DNA of 12,517 nt. Source: a virus. Its lineage: Duplodnaviria; Heunggongvirae; Uroviricota; Caudoviricetes. Shown here one piece after another: positions 1 through 12,517 of this stretch (the stretch's first letter is position 1; the number at the start of each line of letters is the position of its first letter). The stretch is taken from positions 1 to 12,517 of the IMG/VR virus record IMGVR_UViG_2531839668_000004; one strand, given 5' to 3'. The notes under the pieces were generated by a model, which saw only the letters and a list, made by a program, of their open reading frames with translations, was not told the DNA's origin and ran no database searches. The position numbers and the translations under genes were made by a program.

Positions 1-297
1 AGGAAAAATCCGTATTGCCGGAGATGATGGGCTGCCTGCGTGGGCAGATATTCCTCACCCACGCATGAAGAACTTATTGAAATTACTGAATCAGAAAGAC
101 AGCTACTAATTAACCAGGCCAACGAATACATGAACAGTAAGCAATGGCCCGGTAAAGCCGCTATTGGTCGTCTGAAAGATGATGAACTGGCGCAATATAA
201 TTTGTGGCTGGATTATCTGGACGCACTGGAGCTGGTCGATACTTCCGGTGCGCCAGATATTGAATGGCCTACGCCTCCGGCAGTTCAGGCCAGATGA
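1..297 (+). pseudogene. Second tail fibre assembly (Tfa) gene copy, convergent with tfa; 5' part lies beyond the window and the reading frame appears shifted near 60-75
   Basis: The 40..297 ORF (85 aa) ends ...LWLDYLDALELVDTSGAPDIEWPTPP, the same C-terminal motif as the minus-strand Tfa (...DTSTAPDVIWPELP). Its frame has a stop at 25-27, but the adjacent frame is open from the window edge (..GLPAWADIPHP..) and would join it across a single-base shift. 3' ends of the two tfa copies overlap at 269-297. Confidence 0.5.
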
Positions 298-871
298 CAT
301 CCGGCGCGGTGCTGGTATCTGTTGCCGTCACCGCGTCAATGTAATCCAGCACAGCGTTAAGGCGGGTTGTTTCTGCCTGCGTCAGTTTACGTCCGGCCTG
401 CAATTTCAGCTGAATCAGACTGATGGAGGCCATTGCAGTATCAATCAGCGACTGGCGCTGTGCTTCTGCTGCATCTACTGCTGCGCCGTGCTGTGCCTCG
501 GTATCCGTCACCCATTTCTCACCATCCCATTTATCGTATGGCGTTAACGGGGCGATAGTGGTTGTATTATCAGGGTAATCACCCGGAGCTGTGATTTCTT
601 TTGATTCCCCTGTTTCGGTGCTAAAAACGATTTCACCGCGATGGTCTGGCATATATTCCCATGATTTTAAATCTGCTGAACGGCAGATAGTATAACCAGC
701 CTTATATGTACCAGGAGCATCTAAACAGGAATACGCCGGAATACCGACACCCACAACAAGATATTCGGTTGATGTGGAAAGATATTCCTTCGTCTCAGCA
801 TCAAAATTATAAACGGTAATGTTTCCTGCCTTTGTAGTAATGAGTTCGCTATTTAATACGGCTTTATTCAT
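269..871 (-). CDS. tfa: Tail fibre assembly protein (P2 gpG / Tfa family)
   Basis: 200-aa ORF directly downstream of the tail fibre gene; start overlaps H stop (ATGA). C-terminus ...RLNAVLDYIDAVTATDTSTAPDVIWPELPEA matches the conserved Tfa C-terminal motif of enterobacterial phages. Confidence 0.9.
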   Translation of the reverse strand: MNKAVLNSELITTKAGNITVYNFDAETKEYLSTSTEYLVVGVGIPAYSCLDAPGTYKAGYTICRSADLKSWEYMPDHRGEIVFSTETGESKEITAPGDYPDNTTTIAPLTPYDKWDGEKWVTDTEAQHGAAVDAAEAQRQSLIDTAMASISLIQLKLQAGRKLTQAETTRLNAVLDYIDAVTATDTSTAPDVIWPELPEA

Positions 872-2355
872 CAGGCTGCCCTCACGATATAGTTAAATGC
901 GACGTTGCGCGGCCGGGTTTCAGAACCACCAACCGATACCGTAGAAATTGAATTTGCCGTAATAAGTTCCCCGAAAGCATCAGCCGTAACTACGAACCGA
1001 CCTCCCGTTGGATCAAAACTTTTTAGCGCATAGTACTGGTCAAACCAGTGCCCATGAGAAGCAAATAAATGGTCTTGAGATGTCAACAAACCACGAGAGG
1101 AATCCACCCCGCGCCCATCATCCCATCCACGAATAAATTCACCGCGTAAATCAGGCAATTTATTTGTCGGGTAAGCCTTTGCCAGTTCCGGGTATTCTTC
1201 AGCAGAAAAAGCCGCACCATTGCATTTCAACCAGCCTGTTGGCGGAGTGGCTGAAGGCCACGGAACAGGCACCCCAACAGGTAATGCTGAGCCTTCTCCC
1301 AAACCAAGGTATGTGAGAAGACCAGCTACATCCTTTCCACTCAAATTAGTCAGCGTATTGTCCAGCGGTTGTTTACCTGCCAGCGCATTAAGCATTGTCG
1401 TGGCAAAGTTCGGGTCATTCCCCAGAGCTGCCGCCAGTTCGTTCAGTGTATCCAGTGCCGCAGGTGCAGAACCCACCATTGCCGCAATCGCCGATTTCAC
1501 AAATGCCGTGGTGGCAATCTGTGTATTGTTGACCGACTGTGCCGCCGTGGGGGCTGTTGGCGTTCCGGTGAGTGCCGGACTCGACAACGGTGCTTTTAGT
1601 GCCAGCGCATTGTTAATGGTGGTACTGAAATTCGGATCATTGTTAATGGCTGCGGCTATTTCTTTCAGCGTGTCCAGCGTGGCTGGCGCACCATTAATAA
1701 GGGCCGTCAGTGCCGCCTGTACAAACGCAGTGGTCGCAACCTGCGTGGTATTATTCCCCGCCGCTGGCGTTGGCGCTTTGGGGGTTCCGGTAAATGTCGG
1801 GCTGGCTTTTGGCGCGTACTGTGAATGCGGGTCCGGTGCGGCAAGATGTTTTGCCATCTGATCATCCGCGTACACCTTCAGCTCCAGTGCCTTGTCATCC
1901 ACATACTTGCGAGTTGCCAGCACTACAGCAGGGTCGATTTTCAGGGTGATATTGTCCGTGCTGCTGGTAATCAGCACCATGCGCACGGTCTGAGTGCGCC
2001 CGCTACCTTCAGCCAGTTGCGGCTTATAGCTTTCCGGGCAGTTGCCCACGGCAATCAATGCCCCGGACTCATCAAACAAGCCCACTTCACGTATCCACCA
2101 ACCGCCCTCGTTTTCAGGGATCACCTGTTCGGCAATAATCTGGCTGCTGTTCTGCGGGTCGATATAAAGCATATTCAGCGCAGCCCGGCGTTTCTCATTT
2201 ACCAGTGCCGTCTGCTTTGCGTCCGGCGTTGGCAATACTCCACCGCCATCGCCCACCGCCATATGGGTAATTTTTAGCGGCACACCGAGCGCGGCGGCGC
2301 TGGCAAGTTTCGCCGCGCCAATATCCGTCAGCAGGGTATAAAATTTTGTGCTCAT
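871..2355 (-). CDS. H: Tail fibre protein (P2 gpH-like): conserved N-terminal domain, duplicated Ala-rich shaft repeat, variable receptor-binding C-terminus
   Basis: 494-aa ORF. N-terminus MSTKFYTLLTDIGAAKLA...MAVGDGGG...ESYKPQLAEGSGR resembles the P2 H N-terminal domain. Internal ..ATTAFV..DTLNELAAALGNDPNFATT..NALAGKQP repeat and C-terminal ...ETRPRNVAFNYIVRAA are typical of side tail fibres. Start overlaps I stop. Confidence 0.9.
   Translation of the reverse strand: MSTKFYTLLTDIGAAKLASAAALGVPLKITHMAVGDGGGVLPTPDAKQTALVNEKRRAALNMLYIDPQNSSQIIAEQVIPENEGGWWIREVGLFDESGALIAVGNCPESYKPQLAEGSGRTQTVRMVLITSSTDNITLKIDPAVVLATRKYVDDKALELKVYADDQMAKHLAAPDPHSQYAPKASPTFTGTPKAPTPAAGNNTTQVATTAFVQAALTALINGAPATLDTLKEIAAAINNDPNFSTTINNALALKAPLSSPALTGTPTAPTAAQSVNNTQIATTAFVKSAIAAMVGSAPAALDTLNELAAALGNDPNFATTMLNALAGKQPLDNTLTNLSGKDVAGLLTYLGLGEGSALPVGVPVPWPSATPPTGWLKCNGAAFSAEEYPELAKAYPTNKLPDLRGEFIRGWDDGRGVDSSRGLLTSQDHLFASHGHWFDQYYALKSFDPTGGRFVVTADAFGELITANSISTVSVGGSETRPRNVAFNYIVRAA
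1294..1319. other. Candidate serine-invertase crossover site (hix/gix/cix-like 26-bp imperfect palindrome) inside gene H
   Basis: TTCTCCCAAACCAAGGTATGTGAGAA has the AAACC-AAGGT core and TTCT...AGAA flanks of Hin/Gin/Cin/Pin sites, about 19 of 26 positions matching hixL as I recall it. It encodes LTYLGLGEG at the boundary between the conserved and variable parts of H. Confidence 0.5.
1385..1790. repeat. Diverged tandem duplication (two units of about 200 bp) inside H encoding the repeated Ala/Thr-rich shaft motif
   Basis: Protein repeats TQVATTAFVQAALTALINGAPATLDTLKEIAAAINNDPNFSTTINNALALKAP and TQIATTAFVKSAIAAMVGSAPAALDTLNELAAALGNDPNFATTMLNALAGKQP; the corresponding DNA segments are visibly similar. 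Boundaries approximate. Confidence 0.5.
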
Positions 2356-2957
2356 GGATTCACTCTCATTGTGTCAATAACATGGACCGCCCCGCCTTCA
2401 TGCGCGGTGCCACCGGAAATAATCGTTTCGTTGATATACGGATAGATCGTGATTTCTTCGCCAAGATAGCTGGCGGCTCCCACCCAATGCGGGCCGCTGG
2501 TCTGCAGATTGATGGACATGCCGATCATGTGGCGGCTACATGGTTTGGCATCGCTTATCAGTCGCTCAAGTTCCAGATAGGTATCTTCAGTGATGCCCTG
2601 GTCCTGCACGCCGATATCCAGGCGAAACGTGCCCGGTGTTTCTCCGGTCTGCCACCACTCAATAATGCGGATCAGGAATCCGAACGGCTCCACCACCCGC
2701 CGCACGGCACTGGTGGTCCCTTTATGCTGATGAATATAAAAAGCATCCTTCACCACCTGGCGCTTGACGCTTTCTGTCCAGCCCTCGTCCCAGCGATCCA
2801 CAGAGAACGCCCAGGCGAGATAAGGCAGGAAACTGACCGGACAGGTTGCCGGATTCCACAAGTCACGAAGCGGCACCTGCAGATCAGAAATCCCGCTGCA
2901 GGTTTGCGCCAGTCGGCGCTCCAGTGGTGTTGAACCCGGTGGCAGCAGACTATTCAT
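2352..2957 (-). CDS. I: Baseplate assembly / tail protein I (P2 gpI-like)
   Basis: 201-aa ORF between J and H in P2 order; overlaps J stop and H start, indicating translational coupling. Assignment is by position and size. Confidence 0.85.
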   Translation of the reverse strand: MNSLLPPGSTPLERRLAQTCSGISDLQVPLRDLWNPATCPVSFLPYLAWAFSVDRWDEGWTESVKRQVVKDAFYIHQHKGTTSAVRRVVEPFGFLIRIIEWWQTGETPGTFRLDIGVQDQGITEDTYLELERLISDAKPCSRHMIGMSINLQTSGPHWVGAASYLGEEITIYPYINETIISGGTAHEGGAVHVIDTMRVNP

Positions 2958-3858
2958 CCGTTCCTCCGTTGGTTACGCTCCACTGCGTACATGATGCCGC
3001 CTGTGTTTTGTTCAGGACCACATCCGCCAGAGGAGAAGCCAGCTCCACACGCTGCACCCCCTCAACATGCAGGGCGGCAAAGATGGCGCTACGGCGAATA
3101 TCCCGACCAAGACGCGTCTGACTGGCGATGTACTTCTGCAGGCTGGCTTTTGCCGCTGCCATTACCGGCTCTGCTTCCGGTCCAGGATAGAGAAAAATGG
3201 TGGCTTCCACGCGATACGGGATGATTTCTGCGCTGCGAACCGTCAGACGGTCAGCCACCGGGCGGACGTTCTCACTGTTCAGAGCTTTTTCCACCACGTC
3301 CAGCAGGTCTTTTTCTGCAGTTCCATCGCCTTCGCGGCTAAGGACAGTCAGCACCACCTCTGCAGGTGCCGGGCTGGTTGCACTGGCATCCGCCACCCGA
3401 CCGTCGGCGCTTCGGGCATGAAATTCATAAGCTGCAGTTGGCCCCGCAACAGAAAGCCCTTCAAAGGCTGCAGGCACACGCAGGCGCAACGCTTCATCGC
3501 TTTCCATCACAGCTGCAACCGGCGGCACAGCATCATTATCAGCAGGCGTCACCGTCAGGCGTGTCACGTTGTAGTTGGCAGCGAGCTGGTCAAGATCGCC
3601 GCCCATCGCGTAAGCCACCATCACCGCCTGCGCGGCTTCGTTAATGCGCTGGCGCAGAAGCAACTCACGGTAAGCGTTCTCCTGCAACAATTTAGTGGCG
3701 GGTTCAGATTCCAGTTCCAGCGTGCGGATCACTGCTTCCTGCTCATCTTTCGGATGAAGCGCCACAAATTCTGCCTTGCGTTCGGCAAGCAGCGTCTCAA
3801 AGTCCGGCACATCCACAATCTGCGGTGCAGGCAACTGTGAAAGGTCAATCACTGCCAT
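2950..3858 (-). CDS. J: Baseplate assembly protein J (P2 gpJ-like)
   Basis: ORF track gives 2950..3897, but the likely start is the internal ATG (MAVIDLSQLPAPQ...) at 3858, preceded by an AGGAG ribosome-binding site and giving 302 aa, the size I recall for P2 gpJ. The longer version would overlap W. Confidence 0.85.
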   Translation of the reverse strand: MAVIDLSQLPAPQIVDVPDFETLLAERKAEFVALHPKDEQEAVIRTLELESEPATKLLQENAYRELLLRQRINEAAQAVMVAYAMGGDLDQLAANYNVTRLTVTPADNDAVPPVAAVMESDEALRLRVPAAFEGLSVAGPTAAYEFHARSADGRVADASATSPAPAEVVLTVLSREGDGTAEKDLLDVVEKALNSENVRPVADRLTVRSAEIIPYRVEATIFLYPGPEAEPVMAAAKASLQKYIASQTRLGRDIRRSAIFAALHVEGVQRVELASPLADVVLNKTQAASCTQWSVTNGGTDE

Positions 3859-4204
3859 TCTCTGCTCCTGTTGATACGGAAAGGGACACAGGCACACCGT
3901 TATTCCGCCGCCCGGTCAGCTCCACCACCATTGAACCGTCAAAATTGCTGTTGATGGTGATGGAATCCAGCGTCAACCGTGGCTCCCAGCGACTCAGCGC
4001 CACATACACTGCCGACATGACCTGCAGGCGTAATGCCGGATTTTGTGGCTGATCTATCAGTGCCGACAGCAGGGAACCATATTCCCGGCGGGCAATACGG
4101 CTACCCTGCGGTGTCAGCAGAATGTCCCGCACCGACTGGCGCAGATGATCAATATCAGTAATGACTTTGCCGCTGGTATTGTTCATCCCGCTATAAAGCG
4201 TCAT
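3845..4204 (-). CDS. W: Baseplate wedge protein W (GPW/gp25 family)
   Basis: 119-aa ORF between V and J; start overlaps V stop (ATGA). Size and position match P2 gpW. Confidence 0.85.
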   Translation of the reverse strand: MTLYSGMNNTSGKVITDIDHLRQSVRDILLTPQGSRIARREYGSLLSALIDQPQNPALRLQVMSAVYVALSRWEPRLTLDSITINSNFDGSMVVELTGRRNNGVPVSLSVSTGAENGSD

Positions 4205-4779
4205 ACCGGGCCTCCGGTTGTATCGCCGCCTTTCAGGACGCCAGTATGCTGATGCGCATCAACCACGATCCCGTTAGAACTCATCGCTCCGCCGCCCTGG
4301 ATAACGCCACCATTGATCACCACTTCGCTGTTAATACGCGTGCGGTCAGCCTCCAGTACAAACTCACTGGTTTTCATGGTGATGTTGTCAGCAGCCTCAA
4401 TGACCATTGATTTGATGCCCCTGACATACCAGCGCCCGGTGGCGGGTTCGTATTCAAACCAGCCACCGTCAGGATGTTCTGTCACGCAGGCGTCCGCCGA
4501 CGTCGACGGTGGTGCGAACTGATTCGAATAGACAGCGGGCAGCGCAAAGGCGGTTTCCAGATTGCCGCCCAGACTCAGCAGCACCACCTGCTCACCTTCC
4601 GATGGTCGCCACCATGTACGGGCATTCCCGGCACGCAGCGTCAGCCAGCTGATCCAGTTGGTTTCAAGCTCGCCCGTTTTCACCCGGCAAAGCCAGTTTT
4701 CCCGGTCCACTTCGGTGACTACCCCTGTGCGGATCAGGTTGGTGATAAGGCGCATGATTTCGGTTAATTGTGCGTTCAT
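4201..4779 (-). CDS. V: Baseplate central spike / assembly protein V (P2 gpV-like)
   Basis: 192-aa ORF; N-terminus MNAQLTEIMRLITNLIRTGVVTEVD resembles the P2 gpV N-terminus as I recall it. First gene after a 68-bp intergenic gap. Confidence 0.85.
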   Translation of the reverse strand: MNAQLTEIMRLITNLIRTGVVTEVDRENWLCRVKTGELETNWISWLTLRAGNARTWWRPSEGEQVVLLSLGGNLETAFALPAVYSNQFAPPSTSADACVTEHPDGGWFEYEPATGRWYVRGIKSMVIEAADNITMKTSEFVLEADRTRINSEVVINGGVIQGGGAMSSNGIVVDAHQHTGVLKGGDTTGGPV

Positions 4780-4825
4780 AGGGAAAGGTTGCCATCAGAG
4801 GAAGAAAGGCGGCAGTGCTGCAACT

Positions 4826-4843
4826 TGTATCAGTGCTGATACA
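4826..4843 (-). promoter_or_regulatory. TGT-N12-ACA dyad in the S-V intergenic region; candidate Ogr/Delta-type late-activator site of promoter P_V
   Basis: TGTATCAGTGCTGATACA: perfect 9-bp arms of dyad symmetry, 5 nt after the S stop and about 55 bp before the V start codon. P2-like late promoters carry a TGT-N12-ACA element, and P2 has a late promoter in front of V. No clear -10 hexamer seen, and the spacing to the ATG leaves little leader. Confidence 0.4.
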
Positions 4844-4847
4844 AAGA

Positions 4848-5294
4848 TCACCCCGCCAGCCATTGCAGAATCATGTCGCGGGTCATTGCCTCAACATCAT
4901 CATTTACACCCAGAAGGCGACGCTCTGCGTAACGCACCTCCGGTCCCTTACGACTGACGCGATCTCGCAGGCCGTAATGGTGAACGCGGGCAATGCGCTG
5001 CACCTTGCCTTTAAACTGCACGCTGGCAGAGTCGGTGCTGGCGGCAGTTTTCAGGTATTTTGTGGTGCGCAGCTTTGCAAACATCTGACGTTTGATACGG
5101 CCTTTTTTACTGCGTGCTGTTACCCGTCGCGGTTCATAGCTGCTGCCGTCAGGGTTGCGCTGCATCCTGATATTCTGCTGCTGTGTCCGGCGAAGTTCCT
5201 GCGCCAGCTGGCGCATCATGCGGCTTCTCGAGGCTGGTTCCAGATTCGCCAGCAAGGCACTCAGCCAGTCGTCCACCTTCTGCAGTTCAGCCAC
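4848..5294 (-). CDS. S: Tail completion protein S (P2 gpS-like virion morphogenesis protein)
   Basis: 148-aa ORF downstream of R with an 8-bp overlap; size and position match P2 gpS. Confidence 0.85.
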   Translation of the reverse strand: MAELQKVDDWLSALLANLEPASRSRMMRQLAQELRRTQQQNIRMQRNPDGSSYEPRRVTARSKKGRIKRQMFAKLRTTKYLKTAASTDSASVQFKGKVQRIARVHHYGLRDRVSRKGPEVRYAERRLLGVNDDVEAMTRDMILQWLAG

Positions 5295-5739
5295 GTTTCA
5301 CCGTCCACATTTCTTCAGGTGCATCAGGTTCCGCTATAGCTTCAACGCTCGACACACTGCCGTCAGTGCTGACCAGCACACGTTCCGTCAGTTGCAGGTT
5401 CAGGCTGATATCACAGACATCGTTGCGCAGAATATCCACCTCAAAGGTGAATAGCTTTTCCCGTAACGCCGGGTTATTGATGGCATCGGGCTGGTTATCC
5501 CTCAGCCACAGCAAAACCGGGGCCATCAGCAGATTCTGGTCGCCGCTGAAATCTTCAATCACCGCGTTCAGGGTGTAACGGTACTCCCACGACATGGAGC
5601 TGGCCCCCGTGGCAACCAGCGAACCGTTATCCACAAACAGATGCAGTTTGTCCGGGTTATTGCGGACATAAGGCACCGCTTTATTGAGGGCGTGGCGCAG
5701 GGATTGTGGTTTGTTCACTGTTTCGCTCCTGACACGCAA
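5287..5739 (-). CDS. R: Tail completion protein R (P2 gpR-like)
   Basis: 150-aa ORF; size and position between the lysis genes and S match P2 gpR. Confidence 0.85.
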   Translation of the reverse strand: MRVRSETVNKPQSLRHALNKAVPYVRNNPDKLHLFVDNGSLVATGASSMSWEYRYTLNAVIEDFSGDQNLLMAPVLLWLRDNQPDAINNPALREKLFTFEVDILRNDVCDISLNLQLTERVLVSTDGSVSSVEAIAEPDAPEEMWTVKRG

Positions 5740-5971
5740 TAATCATGTCCACTTTGTCTGCACAGACCGCCCAGGCGGCCTCCGTTTCATCCAGCAACGC
5801 GTTCAGATCACCGTTAGTGCGCGGCGCTGCCTGATCCAGCCGACACGGCGTCACTCGCGGACAACCACTGACGGTAAGCTGCACCTCCGGTGAGCGTCGG
5901 ACGTTCCCGCAGCCGGATAATGTCAGCAGGCAAAGGAGTATCAGCCCAGCGGCGTAAATCCTCGTTCTCAC
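5681..5971 (-). CDS. lysC: Outer-membrane spanin lipoprotein (P2 LysC / Rz1-like), starting inside lysB in another frame
   Basis: 96 aa; N-terminus MRTRIYAAGLILLCLLTLSGC is a signal peptide with a lipobox (LSGC), followed by a Pro-rich region. The ORF starts within lysB and runs past its stop into the 5' end of R. Confidence 0.75.
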   Translation of the reverse strand: MRTRIYAAGLILLCLLTLSGCGNVRRSPEVQLTVSGCPRVTPCRLDQAAPRTNGDLNALLDETEAAWAVCADKVDMIIACQERNSEQTTIPAPRPQ

Positions 5972-6242
5972 GTTTCAGTTCCTCAATCCGATGTTGTCGT
6001 TGTCTCAGCAGCGCGCTGGTCTGTTCTGCTTCGGCATAGAGCCGCGCCTGCTCCCGGTTATTGGTTTCAGTCAGAATGGACAGGCTGATAAGCTGGCTGT
6101 TGCTCTTTGCCAGTGCCTGGCTTTTGCTCCGCAGCTCGTCTGCCTGCGTGCTGATGGTCTGGCTGGCATCAGCCAGCCGCCACGTCTGCCAGCCCAGCGA
6201 CGCCAGTAATAACGCCAGCACAACCAGCAGCAACCGGTTCAT
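5814..6242 (-). CDS. lysB: Inner-membrane spanin (P2 LysB / Rz-like)
   Basis: 142 aa; N-terminal transmembrane segment MNRLLLVVLALLLASLGWQ followed by a charged, coiled-coil-like region (EELKRENEDLRRW). Start overlaps lysA stop. Confidence 0.8.
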   Translation of the reverse strand: MNRLLLVVLALLLASLGWQTWRLADASQTISTQADELRSKSQALAKSNSQLISLSILTETNNREQARLYAEAEQTSALLRQRQHRIEELKRENEDLRRWADTPLPADIIRLRERPTLTGGAAYRQWLSASDAVSAGSGSAAH

Positions 6243-6616
6243 GCTGCTACCTGTTGCGCCATCTGGTTACGAGTGATCCAGAAGGCAATAACGGTCAGCA
6301 GATAAAAGACCAGGGTAATGGCCCACCCCGTCCAGGCGAGACTTACGACAATCAGCAATCGCATAACCCAGCTGATAAATACGTTTTCTTTTCGGGTAAT
6401 GCTCTTCAGCAAAGATGCCCTCAACTCCTGCCAGAGCGGGCCGTTCTTAATTAACGCAACCAGTGCTACCGGAATTGCCCCCCATGTCAGCAGGCAGGCT
6501 ACCCAGACACCGGACGCTGCCAGTACCGGAAAAATCCCCTGCGGATACACCATTGCTGCGATTAACAGCGCCATCCATAACATCAGAAACAGTCCGCTGA
6601 TTAATTTCTTTTTCAT
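6239..6616 (-). CDS. lysA: LysA-like membrane protein of the lysis cassette
   Basis: ORF track gives 6239..6688; the likely start is the ATG at 6616 (MKKKLISGLFLMLWMALLIAAMV...), one nt after the K stop with a GGGAG ribosome-binding site. Several hydrophobic helices; sits between K and lysB as in P2. Confidence 0.75.
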   Translation of the reverse strand: MKKKLISGLFLMLWMALLIAAMVYPQGIFPVLAASGVWVACLLTWGAIPVALVALIKNGPLWQELRASLLKSITRKENVFISWVMRLLIVVSLAWTGWAITLVFYLLTVIAFWITRNQMAQQVAA

Positions 6617-6617
6617 T

Positions 6618-7130
6618 TCAGTTTGCTCCCTGTAAACACCAGGCCATCTCCCGCGCACGGCGGTTATCCAGCCCCTGATTAAACACACCTTTTACATAAA
6701 CCCAGCGCGGCAACTGTCGGCACGCATCCGCCCAGCGCCGCTGATTGAGCAATTTCACCAGCGTGGAGCTGCAGGCATTGCCCGTCCCCACGTTGAAGGC
6801 AAACGACACCGTAGCGTCATACACCTTCTGTGGTGGCTGTTGCTTCACACACCTTTCCAGTGCCCGCTCCACACGCAGCACGTTGGAGATCAGCCCTTCT
6901 GCTGCCTGTCGTTCCGTGATTGTTTTGCCGGGAATGACGCCCGATGTATTACCAATGCCGTCGGTCCAGACACCCGCGCTGCACTGATACGGCTGCAGAC
7001 GACAGCCTTCGTAATCGGCAATCAGTTTCAGCCCCTCCACGGAGGTGTGAAGCTGCTGAAAACCCGGCAGCGTGGCAGCAATAGCCAGCACAGCCCCGAC
7101 AAGGCAGCGTTTAACGATTGATGGATTCAT
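6618..7130 (-). CDS. K: Endolysin (T4-lysozyme-like muramidase) with an N-terminal signal-arrest-release (SAR) type anchor; P1 Lyz-like
   Basis: 170 aa; weakly hydrophobic Gly/Ala-rich N-terminus MNPSIVKRCLVGAVLAIAATLPGF, then EGCRLQPYQCSAGVWTDGIGNT, i.e. an E-x8-C-x5-T catalytic motif closely resembling the P1 Lyz sequence as I recall it. Confidence 0.85.
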   Translation of the reverse strand: MNPSIVKRCLVGAVLAIAATLPGFQQLHTSVEGLKLIADYEGCRLQPYQCSAGVWTDGIGNTSGVIPGKTITERQAAEGLISNVLRVERALERCVKQQPPQKVYDATVSFAFNVGTGNACSSTLVKLLNQRRWADACRQLPRWVYVKGVFNQGLDNRRAREMAWCLQGAN

Positions 7131-7326
7131 AGTCCTCCCGCGAGATCTGCCCGTCGCGCAGAAGCTGGTAGGCTTTGTGTTTGTAGTACCAGTTGATAGC
7201 CAGCATCAGCACACCGATCATCAGGCCGCCCAGCGTTGAGGCATCCTTGATGGACAAATCGCCCAGCCAGGCCAGCACGACGGCGATGCAATACGTGATA
7301 AAGGCGCTGATTCGCTCAAGCGTCAT
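7111..7326 (-). CDS. Y: Holin (small two-transmembrane holin, pinholin-sized), P2 gpY position
   Basis: 71 aa with two hydrophobic helices (ISAFITYCIAVVLAWLG and LGGLMIGVLMLAINWYY) and a charged C-terminus; immediately upstream of, and overlapping, the endolysin gene. Confidence 0.8.
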   Translation of the reverse strand: MTLERISAFITYCIAVVLAWLGDLSIKDASTLGGLMIGVLMLAINWYYKHKAYQLLRDGQISREDYESINR

Positions 7327-7329
7327 AAT

Positions 7330-7533
7330 TCAGTCCCATAGCTGGACGGTCTGCACGGTGGTGGTTGTCGGAATGTCCGGCAGCTCCACCTGCAGCCCGT
7401 GAGGTAAAAAGGGGCCGTATTCGGCAAGCCCCGGATTTGCCTTCAGTACCTGCTCCGTGACACCCTGCGTGCGCCCGTAATGACGCCAGCAAAGCGCGTC
7501 CACCGTGTCATACTGATGCGCACGCACTTTCAT
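7330..7533 (-). CDS. X: Tail protein X (P2 gpX-like, LysM-like)
   Basis: 67 aa, the size of P2 gpX; MKVRAHQYDTVDALCWRHYGRTQGV...ANPGLAEYGPFLPHGLQVELPD resembles gpX as I recall it. Confidence 0.85.
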   Translation of the reverse strand: MKVRAHQYDTVDALCWRHYGRTQGVTEQVLKANPGLAEYGPFLPHGLQVELPDIPTTTTVQTVQLWD

Positions 7534-7997
7534 CAGATAAGCTCCACTGTGCAGTGCGGCGCATCCTGCACCCGACTGATGGCCCAGCGGGCGTCACGCC
7601 ACAAATCACCGCTGGATTCCGCCAGTTCCTCGCCCCGCTTCACACCGGATGCCGTGGCGTCATAGTCCTGGTAACGTTCGTTGAGCATGGCGCGTGCCCA
7701 GCAGTAAACCGCGTTGAAATAGTGCTGAATGCGCTCGCTTTTGCCGTCCAGTTGTTCCGCCGGGACTTCTGCCAGCGAGGCATACCCCAGCATCTGCTGG
7801 CGTCTGCGAAACTCATACAGCTCTGCGTTGACCTCCGAAATTGCCGACAGCGCAACCTGCTTTAAACGCGGCTGCGTCACCGTGCCGTCAGTGCGCATCA
7901 CGCTGCGAAACTCCGACGGGTCCACATCAGGCCAGAACGGCGTGTTTCTGATGATTTCCGCCTGTTCCGGTGCCTGTTCTGGCGCAACAAACTTCAT
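7533..7997 (-). CDS. L: Head completion / stabilisation protein L (P2 gpL-like)
   Basis: ORF track gives 7533..8060 from a GTG; the ATG at 7997 (MKFVAPEQ...) has an AGGAGA ribosome-binding site about 7 nt upstream and is the more likely start. Precedes X as in P2. Confidence 0.8.
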   Translation of the reverse strand: MKFVAPEQAPEQAEIIRNTPFWPDVDPSEFRSVMRTDGTVTQPRLKQVALSAISEVNAELYEFRRRQQMLGYASLAEVPAEQLDGKSERIQHYFNAVYCWARAMLNERYQDYDATASGVKRGEELAESSGDLWRDARWAISRVQDAPHCTVELI

Positions 7998-8190
7998 GCT
8001 GCTTTCTCCTGAAATAGAGGGCGGTGGACGGGATTTTGATGTGGCTGTGCCTTTCGCCACCCCGTGCCGCCCGTGCGCGGGGGCACGTTCTGTCAGCGGC
8101 TGTCATTGCGCAGTCTGCGCTCCAGCTGCTGTTTGTCTTTTTTCACGCCACAGCGGGGATCGAGCTGTAACGCATGGTTGAGATGGTTAA

Positions 8191-9375
8191 GGGCAGAAGG
8201 CACAGGCTCACGTCTTTAAGCAGTACATCATCGACTTCGCCAAAGAAGTGGAGGTGGAGCTGAAAGGCGATCCGATGGTGCTTCCTAACGGGGCCACGCT
8301 TTACTTCCTCGGCACCAATGCCCGCACGGCCCAGAGTTATCACGGCAACCTGTATCTGGATGAATATTTCTGGATACCGAAATTCCAGGAGCTGCGCAAA
8401 GTGGCTTCCGGTATGGCTATTCACAAGAAATGGCGACAAACCTATTTTTCCACGCCATCCAGCCTGACACACAGTGCTTATCCGTTCTGGTCCGGTGCGC
8501 TGTTCAACCGTGGGCGCAACAAAGCCGATAAGGTGGACATCGACCTGTCCCACAGCAATCTGGCTCCCGGCCTGCTGTGTGCAGACGGGCAGTACCGCCA
8601 GATAGTCACTGTGGAAGATGCGGTGCGCGGCGGCTGTAACCTGTTCGACCTCGACCAGTTGCGCATGGAGTACAGCCCGGACGAATACCAGAACCTGCTG
8701 ATGTGTGAGTTCGTGGACGATCTCGCGTCCGTATTCCCGCTCAGCGAGCTGCAGGCGTGCATGGTGGACAGCTGGGAAGTCTGGACCGACTTTCATGCAC
8801 TGGCCCTGCGCCCGTTTGGCTGGCGCGAAGTATGGATCGGTTATGACCCGGCGAAAGGTACGCAGAACGGCGACAGTGCCGGATGCGTGGTGGTGGCTCC
8901 GCCAGCCGTGCCGGGCGGTAAGTTCCGCATTCTTGAGCGTCACCAGTGGCGCGGGATGGACTTCCGCGCCCAGGCGGACGCCATCAAAAAACTGACCGAA
9001 CAGTACAACGTGACCTATATCGGCATCGACTCGACAGGTGTAGGTCACGGGGTTTATGAGAACGTGAAAGCGTTCTTTCCTGCCGTCCGGGAGTTTGTTT
9101 ACAACCCCAACGTTAAAAACGCCCTGGTACTCAAGGCCTACGACATTATCAGTCACCGTCGTCTGGAGTTTGACGCCGGACACACCGACATCGCGCAGTC
9201 ATTTATGGCAATCCGTCGCGCCACCACCGCCAGCGGCAACCGCCCGACCTATGAAGCCAGCCGCAGCGAAGAAGCCAGCCACGCCGATCTGGCCTGGGCA
9301 ACGATGCATGCACTGTTTAACGAACCGCTGCAGGGTGAATCCGCCAATACCAGCAATATTGTGGAGATTTTTTGA
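8191..9375 (+). pseudogene. P: Terminase large (ATPase) subunit P, N-terminally truncated: only about the C-terminal two-thirds is present
   Basis: The frame opens right after a TAA at 8188-8190 and runs to 9375 (about 394 codons, versus about 590 aa that I recall for P2 gpP). No N-terminal Walker A region is present; LYLDEYF is Walker-B-like. Stop overlaps the Q start (ATGA). Divergent from L, with nothing in between. Confidence 0.7.
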
Positions 9376-10418
9376 TGGGAAAGAGTAAGAAAAACCGCGC
9401 TGCGGCGACGAATCAGCTCAAGCATAAAAACCAGACTTCAGCCGAAGCATTCAGCTTCGGCGATCCCGTTCCGGTTCTGGACCGCCGTGAACTGCTGGAC
9501 TATGTGGAATGCGTACAGACAGATCGCTGGTATGAGCCGCCAGTGAGTTTTGACGGACTGGCGCGTACCTTTCGCGCCGCCGTGCACCACAGCTCACCGA
9601 TTGCAGTGAAATGCAACATTCTGACCAGCACCTACATCCCTCACCCGCTGCTCAGCCAGCAGGCTTTTTCACGTTTTGTGCAGGACTATCTGGTTTTTGG
9701 TAACGCCTACCTGGAGAAACGCACGAACCGGTTCGGTGAAGTTATCGCCCTTGAGCCTGCTCTGGCAAAATACACCCGACGCGGATTAGACCTGGATACC
9801 TACTGGTTTGTGCAATACGGTATGACAACCCAGCCGTATCAGTTCACGAAAGGCAGCATTTTTCATCTGATGGAACCGGATATTAATCAGGAGATCTACG
9901 GCCTGCCCGGCTATCTTTCTGCCATCCCATCCGCTTTGCTCAACGAGTCCGCCACGCTGTTCCGCCGGAAGTATTACATTAACGGTAGTCATGCAGGCTT
10001 CATCATGTACATGACCGATGCCGCGCAGAACCAGGAGGATGTGAACAACCTCCGCAATGCGATGAAAAGCGCCAAAGGTCCAGGCAACTTCCGCAACCTG
10101 TTTATGTACTCGCCTAACGGCAAAAAGGACGGGCTTCAGATCATCCCGTTGTCAGAAGTTGCGGCGAAGGATGAGTTTCTGAATATCAAGAACGTGAGCC
10201 GTGATGACATGATGGCTGCGCACCGCGTGCCGCCGCAAATGATGGGGATTATGCCTAATAATGTTGGAGGGTTTGGGGATGTGGAAAAAGCCGCGAAGGT
10301 TTTTGTCAGAAATGAGTTGGTTCCTTTGCAGAAAAGACTAGTTGAGCTAAACACCTGGATAAATCAAAATATTGTGTCATTTAATGACTACATCCTTGAC
10401 CAAGATAAGGGCATTTAA
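9372..10418 (+). CDS. Q: Portal protein (P2 gpQ-like)
   Basis: 348 aa, close to the size of P2 gpQ; coupled to P by an ATGA overlap. The last roughly 35 codons are encoded by AT-rich DNA. Confidence 0.85.
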   Translation: MMGKSKKNRAAATNQLKHKNQTSAEAFSFGDPVPVLDRRELLDYVECVQTDRWYEPPVSFDGLARTFRAAVHHSSPIAVKCNILTSTYIPHPLLSQQAFSRFVQDYLVFGNAYLEKRTNRFGEVIALEPALAKYTRRGLDLDTYWFVQYGMTTQPYQFTKGSIFHLMEPDINQEIYGLPGYLSAIPSALLNESATLFRRKYYINGSHAGFIMYMTDAAQNQEDVNNLRNAMKSAKGPGNFRNLFMYSPNGKKDGLQIIPLSEVAAKDEFLNIKNVSRDDMMAAHRVPPQMMGIMPNNVGGFGDVEKAAKVFVRNELVPLQKRLVELNTWINQNIVSFNDYILDQDKGI

Positions 10419-10429
10419 TGCCCTTTTTT
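10407..10429 (+). terminator. Intrinsic terminator hairpin shared by the convergent Q and membrane-protein genes
   Basis: AAGGGCAT-TTA-ATGCCCTT stem-loop followed by a T-run; the Q stop codon lies in the loop, and the converging minus-strand gene ends at 10415. Confidence 0.6.
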
Positions 10430-11206
10430 ATCCTCATAAGCAACGTCATCGTATAATTTTAAGGCACCTAAATCATGTAATTGCTGCTTGAATTCCTTAC
10501 TTAAACTAAACCCCTGAAGGAGAGAATATTTTTCAATAAATTTCTTGGCAGGCTTTCCTACCGATGAAAAACCATTTAATAGCATCGCGCCAGATTCTAT
10601 AGAAGATATTTGTGCTCTAACTAATTTCGCATACTTGGTTTTTTCTTTCTCAGTCAAATAGTTAGAGTCGTTGATATGTTTAAAAATATGGTAAATATTC
10701 CTGAAATAATGTCCCACATTCGCAAAATTGTCACCTTCCAGATAAACCATATTAACTGAAAGCTCTAACCTTTCATCCAAAGGAAGTGAATCATCCACAA
10801 TATTAAGTAGGTTAAACTTCACTTCGGTAATGTATAATGAAAGAGCCTCTCGTCCTACATACACTTTTCCATCTGAATACGTTGTTTTAATTTCTGATAA
10901 GTTATCTTTATGAAATCTTAGTAACTCAAATAACACAGACTCGAATGACTGAATAGATGACTGCCTGGATGTAGAATATAGTGTGAAACAAACAAGCATG
11001 ATAGAGATAAAGGCCAGAGCAGGATTCAGTACACCACCAATATAATCGCCAAACTGTCCCCATTTCTCTACGGAATCACTCCATGAATACATTCCAAATT
11101 TACAAACATAGCTAACAAACACTATCAGCATTAAAATAAAAGCCAAAAACAACAGTGAATAAATAATGGCATAACGCTTAATATTTCGAAGAATGGCACC
11201 ACACAT
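10415..11206 (-). CDS. Membrane-anchored protein of unknown function (two N-terminal transmembrane helices plus a roughly 190-aa soluble domain); cargo gene
   Basis: ORF track gives 10415..11272 (285 aa), but that start overlaps the ASCH gene by 55 bp; the internal ATG at 11206 (MCGAILRNIKRYAIIYSLLFLAFILMLIVFVSYV...) avoids this. Second hydrophobic helix LNPALAFISIMLVCFTLY. AT-rich codon usage unlike the phage module. Confidence 0.6.
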   Translation of the reverse strand: MCGAILRNIKRYAIIYSLLFLAFILMLIVFVSYVCKFGMYSWSDSVEKWGQFGDYIGGVLNPALAFISIMLVCFTLYSTSRQSSIQSFESVLFELLRFHKDNLSEIKTTYSDGKVYVGREALSLYITEVKFNLLNIVDDSLPLDERLELSVNMVYLEGDNFANVGHYFRNIYHIFKHINDSNYLTEKEKTKYAKLVRAQISSIESGAMLLNGFSSVGKPAKKFIEKYSLLQGFSLSKEFKQQLHDLGALKLYDDVAYEDKKGH

Positions 11207-11217
11207 CTCACAATACC

Positions 11218-11595
11218 TTATATATAATCCATATTTAAATCTATTGTATAAATACCTTTCCTCGCCACACAAGGAATAGATTTTTTTAAAGTTCTAACAT
11301 TTTTAATTTCCCACACATAATAACCTGGAGACCAAGGCTTATTAAGAGTTGTTTCTTGGTTTTGTTTTAAGTAATCCTCATATGACCAATTTCTAACTGA
11401 AACAAAATCGACAATAGCCATAGCCACCCCATGATCTATATCGCTTTGATTTTTAAGATATTTATCATTCTGAACAAGAATGACGTTTTTTAATGGTATC
11501 GTTTCAGGATACCACGACCGTATTTCGATAGATTTAGAACCATTTATAATATTTTCTACCGCTGGAGTCAAAATCGATATAGCTTGAAACTTCAT
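11218..11595 (-). CDS. ASCH-domain (PUA-like beta-barrel) protein
   Basis: 125 aa; N-terminal ISILTPAVENIINGSKSIEIRSW contains the ASCH signature G-x-K-x-x-E-x-R. GAGGA ribosome-binding site before the start; AT-rich; upstream of and co-oriented with the membrane protein gene. Confidence 0.7.
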   Translation of the reverse strand: MKFQAISILTPAVENIINGSKSIEIRSWYPETIPLKNVILVQNDKYLKNQSDIDHGVAMAIVDFVSVRNWSYEDYLKQNQETTLNKPWSPGYYVWEIKNVRTLKKSIPCVARKGIYTIDLNMDYI

Positions 11596-11660
11596 GCTCT
11601 ATCCTCTACTATGCTAAGGCTATAACATTCTAACATAAATAAATAAACGGAGGTAATACT

Positions 11661-12206
11661 ATGTTAATTTTCATAGCAGGTGTTCATGGTGTAGGCAAAG
11701 GTTACTTGTGTTCATTTGCAAAAGATGATTTCGGGGTAACTCATGTAAGCGCAAGCGAACTTATAAAAAATAATTCTAATATTAAATTTGATAACAGTAA
11801 GTTAACGGCCACACCTGATAAAAACCAATCAATATTACTTACGGCACTTAATGCATTAAAGTCAAAGGTATCCAATATTTTATTGGATGGTCATTTTACC
11901 TTAATAAATAAAAATGGAGATATTGAAGTTCTCAAGCAAGAAGTATTTGAGGAAATGGGGCTAGATGGAGTAATTTTAGTTGAGGAGTCTCCCGATACAA
12001 TTAGAGAACGAATAATGAAACGAGATGGGAGTGATATTACTTATGATTTAAATAAGCTGATGGAAGCTGAAAGAGAAAACGCAAAATATGTTACAAATAA
12101 AATCAATGTACCATTAATTATCTTAGAATCCCCAACAACAAACGATTTATCTATTGCTCTAGAAAAACTGGGCATGGTTAAGAAACATGCCCAGATAACA
12201 TTATAA
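11661..12206 (+). CDS. Small P-loop NTPase, nucleoside/nucleotide-kinase-like
   Basis: 181 aa; Walker A MLIFIAGVHGVGKGY at the extreme N-terminus and a Walker-B-like hhhhD (ILLDGHF), the layout of small adenylate/shikimate-type kinases. GGAGG ribosome-binding site 7 nt upstream. Divergent from the ASCH gene across a 65-bp AT-rich gap. Confidence 0.65.
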   Translation: MLIFIAGVHGVGKGYLCSFAKDDFGVTHVSASELIKNNSNIKFDNSKLTATPDKNQSILLTALNALKSKVSNILLDGHFTLINKNGDIEVLKQEVFEEMGLDGVILVEESPDTIRERIMKRDGSDITYDLNKLMEAERENAKYVTNKINVPLIILESPTTNDLSIALEKLGMVKKHAQITL

Positions 12207-12517
12207 ATAACGATAAGACTGTGGGGCGACGCCGCCGGGAATCAACTCATTTAAGTCGACAGGGAATTTATATCTTTTAGGGCTTTTGATGGAAATAGCA
12301 AAAGCCTTTTCTCTTTGGTGGAAATAATCTTTAAAAAAAGAATGTGTAATTCCTGCATGAGCTTTCGTTTTATCCCACAATTCTGAAGGGGATAGAGCAA
12401 GAATATCTCCTACTTTAAATTCACCTATTACTTTGCCAACCGGCATCGTTGCGTAAATAACTATCGTATCAACATTTTTATTTCTAAAAATATTTTTCCG
12501 AAACTCATATTTTTTTA
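12201..12517 (-). CDS. Partial ORF (C-terminal part; N-terminus beyond the right window edge), unknown function
   Basis: ORF track shows 12201..12446 (81 aa), but the frame appears open upstream to the window edge (..DTIVIYATMPVGKVIGEFKVGDILALSP...). Convergent with the kinase gene, overlapping it by 6 bp. AT-rich. Confidence 0.5.
   Translation of the reverse strand, partial: KKYEFRKNIFRNKNVDTIVIYATMPVGKVIGEFKVGDILALSPSELWDKTKAHAGITHSFFKDYFHQREKAFAISIKSPKRYKFPVDLNELIPGGVAPQSYRYL

Follow-up and report, generated by a model that had tools for sequence, protein, structure and literature searches.

An abrupt change to AT-rich DNA beside the portal gene of a P2-like phage raises the question of what the incoming segment encodes and which of its genes belong to one system. 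We studied this in a stretch of 12,517 nucleotides from a virus of the Caudoviricetes (IMG/VR record IMGVR_UViG_2531839668_000004, positions 1 to 12,517), which was analysed at its full length and is called the window below. A sequence-only reading had noted four genes from about 10.3 kb to the end, encoding a membrane protein, an ASCH protein, a P-loop kinase-like protein, and a partial open reading frame (ORF), and had proposed that they make up a novel accessory or defence module. The AT-rich segment has been exchanged horizontally and is cargo in the gpQ–cos–gpA hotspot of a 186/P2-like prophage. It is part of a larger cassette, which is, by its profile matches, the PADLOC candidate PDC-M11 together with an AAA_17 kinase, i.e., a (PIN)-GNAT-EVE/ASCH/AAA_17 operon of the kind described computationally. 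The proposed module is therefore real foreign cargo in a hotspot, but it is a member of an already catalogued candidate cassette.

The AT-rich segment is part of a cassette between the portal gene and a cos-like element

The composition switch reported near 10.3 kb is borne out. The GC (guanine plus cytosine) content falls from 0.554 in bases 1–10300 to 0.333 in bases 10301–12517 (z = −21), and a two-segment likelihood places the change point at base 10299. Among 500-nt intervals, the maximum past 10400 is 0.362 and the minimum ahead of 10000 is 0.43. Gene by gene, the ORFs of the island all lie between 0.31 and 0.34 and the structural genes between 0.53 and 0.58, with somewhat lower values in the tail-fibre region (0.43–0.46). 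The four ORFs are present as listed, and their Pfam and other profile matches give neither a virion nor a housekeeping gene, in agreement with the earlier view that the island lacks virion functions.

The AT-rich cargo segment (10299..12517, no strand, GC 0.33) has its left border in the gene of the portal protein gpQ (9372..10418, plus strand; Pfam Phage_portal, 2.9e-16). The final 30–35 codons of this gene lie within the AT-rich swapped DNA: its last 118 nt (10301–10418) already have a low GC content (0.339), and the backbone homology with related E. coli P2-like prophages breaks off at window positions 10319–10391, inside the 3′ end of the gene. The next gene of the cassette, encoding the membrane protein (putAbiC), is convergent with the portal gene, and their stop codons overlap. 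A terminator-like hairpin on the plus strand (AAGGGCATTTAATGCCCTT then a T run; 10407..10425, or 14108–14126 in the reference copy introduced below), which is a consensus match only, spans the two stops.

The other border lies beyond the window. We located it in an intact reference copy, a complete 186/P2-like E. coli prophage (L001), whose coordinates are those of the window plus 3701. There, the low-GC block runs about 1.1 kb past the window end, to the window equivalent of about 13605, and the GC content is back to 0.50 beyond L001 position 17306. This copy adds three ORFs past the window: the remainder of the partial one (ASCH2) and two ORFs of 193 and 156 residues. There, the portal gene is followed by six low-GC genes and then, past a gap of about 400 bp, by a DinI-like gene, a small ORF, and gpA, which encodes the replication endonuclease. 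The complete cassette thus has six genes in about 3.3 kb, of which the AT-rich part of the window is the left two thirds. The sequence-only reading had treated the four genes as a unit; the window in fact cuts a six-gene cassette, leaving the GNAT and EVE partners outside, and the membrane protein gene is separable from the rest (see below).

On the side away from the portal gene, the cassette is bounded by a conserved element of about 150 bp with a cos-like core, GGCGTGGCGGGGA (L001 17470–17624, window equivalent 13769–13923). The homology to other E. coli P2-like prophages restarts at this element, and then again at the DinI gene. The element is kept in seven prophages of four genera, where the DNA on one of its flanks is unrelated, and the Serratia copy has GGCGAGGCGGGG in place of GGCGTGGCGGGGA. 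GGCGTGGCGGGGA and GGCGAGGCGGGG are the starts of the 186 and P2 cohesive ends, respectively, and we take the element to be cos. The P2/186 cohesive-end sequence, in the consensus that we assume for it, has no match within the window; the sole cos-like site is the one beyond it. The island had been placed across cos from Q, which is not what we find: it abuts Q, with overlapping stops, and the cos-like element is on its far side. In an Enterobacter prophage (L030), the same cassette is on the opposite side of the cos-like element. Since the side of the cassette differs between L001 and L030, cargo may occupy either flank of cos. The Enterobacter prophages (L030–L032, 2998–4362) also carry, between the portal gene and the cos-like element, a 454-residue gene with no Pfam match that is stacked beside the cassette and that, in L030, the element separates from it.

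The cassette is exchanged as a block in a variable slot

The gpA–gpQ region by cos is a hotspot, with 1,650 gene arrangements among 18,150 loci, and holds old/tin in P2 (Rousset 2022, PMC9122126). Table S5A of that study includes the same arrangement as ours, with identical RefSeq protein accessions; in the main text, it is not among the systems reported as tested (Rousset 2022, PMC9122126). The intact copy and this survey bear out the suggestion that the island sits in the variable accessory slot beside the portal gene of a P2-like prophage.

The island was found at 99.6–100% identity in 8 of the 5426 complete E. coli genomes, of which 1216 have the portal gene (at ≥80% coverage). A comparison of the same inter-gene slot in related prophages revealed different, partly known defence genes, as the sequence-only reading had led one to expect: the three relatives sampled carry the retron Ec67, a KAP-type NTPase with IS2 and an HsdR_N protein, and a set of hypothetical proteins, respectively. 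Among 50,697 phage records, megablast gave no match to the island; prophages, and not deposited phage genomes, are where the cassette is known. All six ORFs are intact, and 44–84% identical to the E. coli versions, in Enterobacter, Citrobacter, Serratia, Erwinia, and Providencia. Between the Enterobacter L030 prophage and that of E. coli, the phage backbone is 84–95% identical and the cassette proteins are 44–73% identical. This gap indicates that the cassette has been exchanged as a block by recombination.

The cassette matches a catalogued candidate system

GNAT-EVE fusions, often with an N-terminal PIN domain, occur in operons almost always with an ASCH gene and often with an AAA_17 gene (Bell 2020, PMC7641849, citing Iyer 2013). 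The forms with PIN are found beside type I restriction-modification (RM) and CRISPR systems, and the PIN-less ones in beta- and gamma-proteobacterial prophages (Bell 2020, PMC7641849). The operon was predicted to be a toxin-antitoxin (TA)-like system, with its modules uncharacterised and AAA_17 taken as a non-essential regulator (Bell 2020, PMC7641849). Iyer 2013, as cited in Bell 2020, also predicts the (PIN)-GNAT-EVE/ASCH/AAA_17 system.

In the P2-like cassette, the PADLOC model PDC-M11A (PDLC04419) is split over the two adjacent ORFs beyond the window: its positions 11–160 match the GNAT ORF (1.1e-58) and its positions 166–357 the EVE ORF (5.9e-69). The companion model PDC-M11B matches ASCH2, both as the partial ORF of the window (7.3e-38) and at full length (1.7e-49). 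The Pfam and PADLOC profile searches thus give no indication that the ORFs belong to routine host metabolism, but they do recognise the candidate PDC-M11. Similarly, the claim that this gene combination is undescribed holds for experiments, as we found no validation of this kind, but not for computation, since the combination has been catalogued in PADLOC (PDC-M11), Iyer 2013, Bell 2020, and Rousset 2022.

The GNAT ORF conserves the glycines of motif A, which binds acetyl-CoA, and its profile matches in the PDB are all GNATs (Naa50 and similar; best 1.4e-7); it also matches phrog_13728, "acetyltransferase" (3.9e-52). The PHROG and PADLOC models that match the split ORFs also match the fused GNAT-EVE forms. 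Full-length long forms of other phyla (L007, L017, L023) match Pfam Acetyltransf_1 and EVE, and of the 13 EVE-domain sequences that were aligned for the family, 6 match Pfam EVE. GNAT and EVE are separate ORFs in all 33 P2-type loci examined, with no C-terminal EVE fusion. A pseudogene origin of this split can be ruled out, because both ORFs are intact in the five genera and in 28 IMG/VR loci. The GNAT ORF has 156 residues and no N-terminal extension, the long forms of 490–540 residues being restricted to non-phage loci, and on this basis we place the cassette in the PIN-less prophage subclass.

Five genes form a unit, and putAbiC is optional

To which genes does the system extend? A protein search with the kinase retrieved homologues in 28 loci, at one genome per species, from Proteobacteria, Cyanobacteria, Verrucomicrobiota, Saccharibacteria, and others. 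Iterated profiles showed that a GNAT(-EVE) gene adjoins the kinase in 27 of these and a ZmASCH-like ASCH gene in 26. The commonest order is GNAT-EVE, ASCH, kinase, all on the same strand. Two loci encode ASCH-AAA_17 fusions in a single ORF, with both Pfam domains in one protein: L013 (454–1434, a Thiobacillaceae metagenome-assembled genome) and L022 (6545–7567, an uncultured rumen bacterium). The tight linkage and the fusions lead us to regard the kinase as a dedicated component of the GNAT-EVE/ASCH system, and we predict that it acts physically with the ASCH protein.

The P2-type version has one more conserved member. A scan of IMG/VR with the ASCH protein nearest to the membrane protein gene (ASCH1) gave 30 loci, in 28 of which it stands beside the kinase, ASCH2, EVE, and GNAT genes, in the order GNAT, EVE, ASCH2, kinase, ASCH1 between gpA and gpQ. 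These five ORFs are the unit, of which the window has ASCH1, the kinase, and most of ASCH2. They are tightly packed in L001, where the ASCH2 and EVE ORFs share 23 nt and there is almost no gap between EVE and GNAT. The kinase gene converges on ASCH2, and 65 nt separate it from ASCH1, from which it diverges. The set to consider is therefore the five genes, which reach 1.1 kb past the window; the kinase and the second ASCH are integral members of it, and putAbiC is an optional one.

The putAbiC gene follows ASCH1 in 20 of these 28 P2-type loci. Because it is missing from the other eight, which keep the remaining five genes, we regard it as separable: a single-gene candidate abortive-infection module. 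A two-gene system made of ASCH1 and putAbiC was also considered, and is ruled out, as ASCH1 stays with the kinase/GNAT unit in the eight loci that lack putAbiC.

The surroundings of the non-phage operons were sampled for their content. Among ten flanking ORFs, seven (in four of seven loci) match models of defence or candidate defence genes. They include HsdR and HsdS of a type I system (L017), PDC-S01 and a type I restriction endonuclease (L023), a type IIG-like enzyme and a GajB-like helicase (L010), and a reverse transcriptase (L007). This sample agrees with the defence context described previously (Bell 2020, PMC7641849).

Some loci show variants of the operon. In Acidovorax (L006, 3098–7537), a short GNAT-EVE with ASCH and no kinase is followed by a long-form GNAT-EVE with ASCH and kinase; the long form has about 160 extra N-terminal residues, and an additional GNAT-like ORF stands between the two systems. 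In Pseudomonas (L009, 9056–9955; L012, 9086–9925), the ASCH partner has 280–300 residues, about 140–160 of them extra at the N-terminus, and may be the helix-turn-helix (HTH)-ASCH fusion mentioned in Bell 2020. The kinase of these two loci faces the GNAT-EVE gene, as it does in the P2 version.

The proteins encoded in the window

The kinase-like protein (11661..12206, plus strand, 181 residues; Pfam AAA_17, 8.4e-19) is a P-loop protein resembling nucleoside monophosphate (NMP) kinases, and its gene overlaps that of ASCH2 by 6 nt. Its invariant residues are G7, H9, G12, K13, D76, G77, H78, R117, and R121. The AlphaFold2 model (predicted local distance difference test [pLDDT] of 90.7) is matched in Foldseek by archaeal adenylate kinases, at a template-modelling (TM) score of about 0.7, and the best profile match in the PDB is a UMP/CMP kinase (1.6e-7). 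A housekeeping adenylate kinase (Adk) or cytidylate kinase (Cmk) is ruled out, because the NCBIfam scores are far under the equivalog cut-offs (best 32.9 bits, for a cut-off of 155 in the adenylate kinase equivalog). The single PADLOC match, to VakA, is marginal (0.0064) and was disregarded. A promoter-like site on the plus strand (TTGAAA-17-TACTAT, 11584..11612; L001 15285–15313) overlaps the 5′ end of ASCH1 and reaches into the divergent intergenic region (11596–11660); it is a weak consensus match, in a scan that gave 7 sites when 15 were expected from shuffles, i.e., fewer than in shuffled sequence.

ASCH2, the PADLOC PDC-M11B protein (12201..12517, minus strand, partial), is represented in the window by the C-terminal 105 of its 123 codons, the first 18 being off its end. 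It matches Pfam ASCH (5.3e-9), and its family profile aligns over the full length with ZmASCH (PDB 5GUQ/5GUS; 2.4e-26). ZmASCH binds nucleic acids and is a weak, Mg-dependent endonuclease of single-stranded RNA in vitro, with Tyr47, Lys53, and Ser128 as functional residues (Kim 2017, PMC5615036). Tyr47 aligns with Y40 of ASCH2. Lys53 stands opposite Gly46, with a Lys one position further on. Ser119 of ASCH2 is nearly invariant, within a C-terminal PPQS motif, and is probably the counterpart of Ser128 by its position, the alignment ending at residue 110, ahead of the motif.

ASCH1 (11218..11595, minus strand, 125 residues) is an ASCH-fold protein specific to the P2-type cassette; between its stop and the start of the downstream putAbiC gene there are 11 nt. 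Its match to Pfam ASCH is borderline (0.0016), and it gave no match in PADLOC. It has the motif GxKxxExR, with invariant K21, E24, and R26. Its AlphaFold2 model (pLDDT 87.8) is matched in Foldseek by EOLA1/CXorf40A, the ASCH domain of TRIP4, and ZmASCH.

ASCH proteins were also seen in other settings. Distant relatives of ASCH1 are encoded in other contexts (L063, L064), that of L063 being a standalone gene between tail-fibre and lysis genes. ASCH/DUF3850 proteins are recurrent in the hotspot, with at least 143 entries labelled "ASCH" in Table S5A of Rousset 2022; among the arrangements are "DUF3850/ASCH + 3 hypotheticals" and "DUF3850/ASCH + AAA_15/AAA_21". In the supplement of that study, HHpred also assigns DUF3850/ASCH to the third gene in the old-tin clone of P2.

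The membrane protein belongs to the putAbiC family (10415..11206, minus strand, 263 residues from the ATG start in RefSeq; the mechanically drawn ORF extends to a TTG at 11272). It matches Pfam putAbiC (PF16872) at 1.2e-18 and 67.9 bits, for a cut-off of 22, and phrog_8999 at 6e-85. The match to the AbiC model of PADLOC is weak and partial (E = 1e-5, 23 bits, profile positions 157–232 of 306). Hydropathy reveals two hydrophobic N-terminal segments, at residues 9–42 and 55–80, from which we predict two N-terminal transmembrane segments followed by a cytoplasmic putAbiC domain.

Defence and its alternatives

What does the cassette do for the prophage or its host? We think it more likely than not that it is a defence system of the lysogen, which would express it for superinfection exclusion or abortive infection. 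The PUA-like readers (EVE and ASCH) would bind modified bases, either in the DNA or RNA of an invading phage or in tRNA. They would gate a toxic activity, which may be the acetylation of nucleic acid or aminoacyl-tRNA by GNAT, the ribonuclease activity of ASCH, or both. BapA is a precedent for an ASCH-fold protein in defence against hypermodified phage DNA, and GNAT toxins acetylating aminoacyl-tRNA are cited in Bell 2020 (PMC7641849). The kinase would provide an ATP-dependent step in its association with the ASCH protein, and putAbiC would act independently, at the membrane, being stacked beside the five-gene unit. In this scheme, we infer the anti-phage phenotype, the substrates, and the toxin, sensor, and antidote roles.

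Several observations weigh against this interpretation. The literature searched contained no experimental anti-phage test of PDC-M11 or GNAT-EVE; the name "PDC-M11" occurred there in a strain inventory and nowhere else, and "GNAT-EVE" was confined to the paper of Bell 2020 and the preprint of it. Of eight additional P2 systems that were cloned, five were inactive, and the hotspot also bears cargo other than defence genes, including cytolethal distending toxin and partition systems (Rousset 2022, PMC9122126). The PIN-less phage form could aid phages against host restriction (Bell 2020, PMC7641849). PADLOC is without a model for ASCH1 or the kinase, and the weakness of its AbiC match applies to the membrane protein. 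The EVE half in E. coli is below detection by Pfam EVE, its identity resting on family members. Finally, there is occasional decay: the kinase is only a short fragment in L044 (5440–5637), and ASCH2 is split in L040 (4982–5391).

One alternative is that the cassette serves the phage itself. GNAT and the kinase, targeted by EVE/ASCH, would modify the nucleic acid bases or nucleotides of the phage or of the host during lytic growth and thereby help the phage to evade host restriction. Mu Mom and the kinase-dependent pathways of pyrimidine hypermodification offer a comparison. The NMP-kinase fold of the kinase, with UMP/CMP kinases among its best sequence matches, is in line with such a role, and PIN-less GNAT-EVE proteins, typical of prophages, might shield the phage from RM (Bell 2020, PMC7641849). 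Yet the cassette lies in a lysogenic-conversion hotspot and not in a late operon, and it is present in less than 1% of otherwise similar E. coli prophages, which makes it dispensable for phage growth. It was also retained in a prophage that no longer has the capsid genes or a complete terminase (see below), the cellular homologues are in defence islands, and a putAbiC gene usually accompanies it. We regard this alternative as unlikely.

The five-gene unit could instead be a new type of immunity that marks modified nucleic acids or nucleotides enzymatically. EVE/ASCH would then recognise a phage-specific modified base (e.g., a hydroxymethylated or hypermodified pyrimidine) or a modified tRNA position, and the kinase, with its ASCH partner, and GNAT would phosphorylate and acetylate the target, turning a protective modification or the tRNA pool into a lethal lesion. 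The ASCH proteins might be an eraser or a nuclease, and the kinase would be an essential catalyst, not a "non-essential regulator". If true, this would be a writer/reader/eraser logic not yet shown in any defence system; we think it quite unlikely.

It is just as doubtful that the cassette is a plain toxin-antitoxin addiction module, with GNAT or the ASCH ribonuclease as toxin and another component as antidote, that stabilises the prophage or the hotspot cargo and has no anti-phage role. The operons were classed as putative TA systems (Bell 2020, PMC7641849), the ORFs are coupled tightly enough to overlap or abut, and the cassette is kept in a defective prophage. However, a TA pair would need fewer than the five conserved components, among which are a kinase and two reader domains, and the neighbouring RM and defence genes, together with the status of PADLOC candidate, point to conflict with invaders; in addition, many TA systems are abortive-infection systems, so that this explanation overlaps with defence of the lysogen.

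Last, an accidental pile-up of unrelated morons or host metabolic genes (adenylate or cytidylate kinase) with no joint function is largely refuted and very improbable: putAbiC is truly separable, distant ASCH1 relatives stand alone in another prophage type (L063), and the hotspot often stacks several systems (Rousset 2022, PMC9122126), but the order and orientation of the five genes are kept in 28 IMG/VR loci and in five genera at 44–84% identity, the linkage of kinase, ASCH, and GNAT genes holds across phyla, with gene fusions among the instances, and the kinase scores far under the adenylate kinase cut-off.

Were defence of the lysogen to be confirmed, it would give a first phenotype to a widespread candidate that is found from Saccharibacteria to Cyanobacteria, beside restriction-modification systems. 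The P2 version is a compact, 3.3-kb, E. coli-native entry point for experiments, in which GNAT and EVE are separately encoded and putAbiC is an optional partner.

Other features of the prophage

Compared with the intact prophage, the window lacks 3.18 kb (L001 8712–11893), and the deletion junction, at 8194–8199, shows a microhomology of 6 bp. The capsid gene N and the scaffold gene O are lost, together with most of M, which encodes the small terminase, and about the first 195 codons of P, which encodes the large one and of which an in-frame remnant is left (8248–9375). Given these losses, the prophage must be defective in head formation and packaging, while it has retained the hotspot cargo. 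Of the 5426 complete E. coli genomes, not one has this junction. Two other truncated P2-like prophages (L066, L067) have kept the portal gene and the hotspot.

At the other end, positions 1–1278, a segment of tail-fibre and assembly genes, are inverted relative to L001 1–1279. The tail-fibre gene (871–2355, minus strand, 494 residues) is intact in the window and annotated as truncated in the L001 copy. A 189-residue "recombinase family protein" is encoded beside the tail-fibre segment in L068 (6052–6618). The segment looks like an invertible host-range switch of the type of Mu G or e14 P.

Comparison with known systems

The cassette shares with old/tin of P2 and with other gpA–gpQ cargo its inter-gene slot by cos, its AT-richness, its variability, and its carriage by prophages. 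It differs from old/tin in being on the Q side of the cos-like element. No cassette protein matched Old or Tin in PADLOC at E ≤ 0.1, a result that presumes that PADLOC-DB 2.0 has such models, as we believe it does. The hotspot systems that were reported as validated do not include the present cassette (Rousset 2022, PMC9122126).

The membrane protein has in common with the lactococcal AbiC/putAbiC family a Pfam domain above the cut-off, an N-terminal membrane anchor, and the single-gene form, but the AbiC model of PADLOC is matched only partially and weakly. The kinase shares with adenylate and UMP/CMP kinases the P-loop, a Walker-B-like DGH motif, the LID arginines, and the overall fold; it differs in an identity of about 20% and in belonging to a family almost confined to GNAT-EVE/ASCH neighbourhoods. 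ASCH2 is homologous to ZmASCH over its full length and retains the functional Tyr, whereas Lys53 is displaced by one position; its ribonuclease activity is putative, and that of ZmASCH itself is weak.

The closest likeness is to the (PIN)-GNAT-EVE/ASCH/AAA_17 system, with which the cassette shares GNAT, EVE, a ZmASCH-like ASCH protein, and AAA_17, at matches to PDC-M11A/B of 1e-49 to 1e-69. It departs from the operon of Bell 2020 in that GNAT and EVE are split, the kinase gene is inverted, a divergent ASCH1 is added, and putAbiC usually follows.

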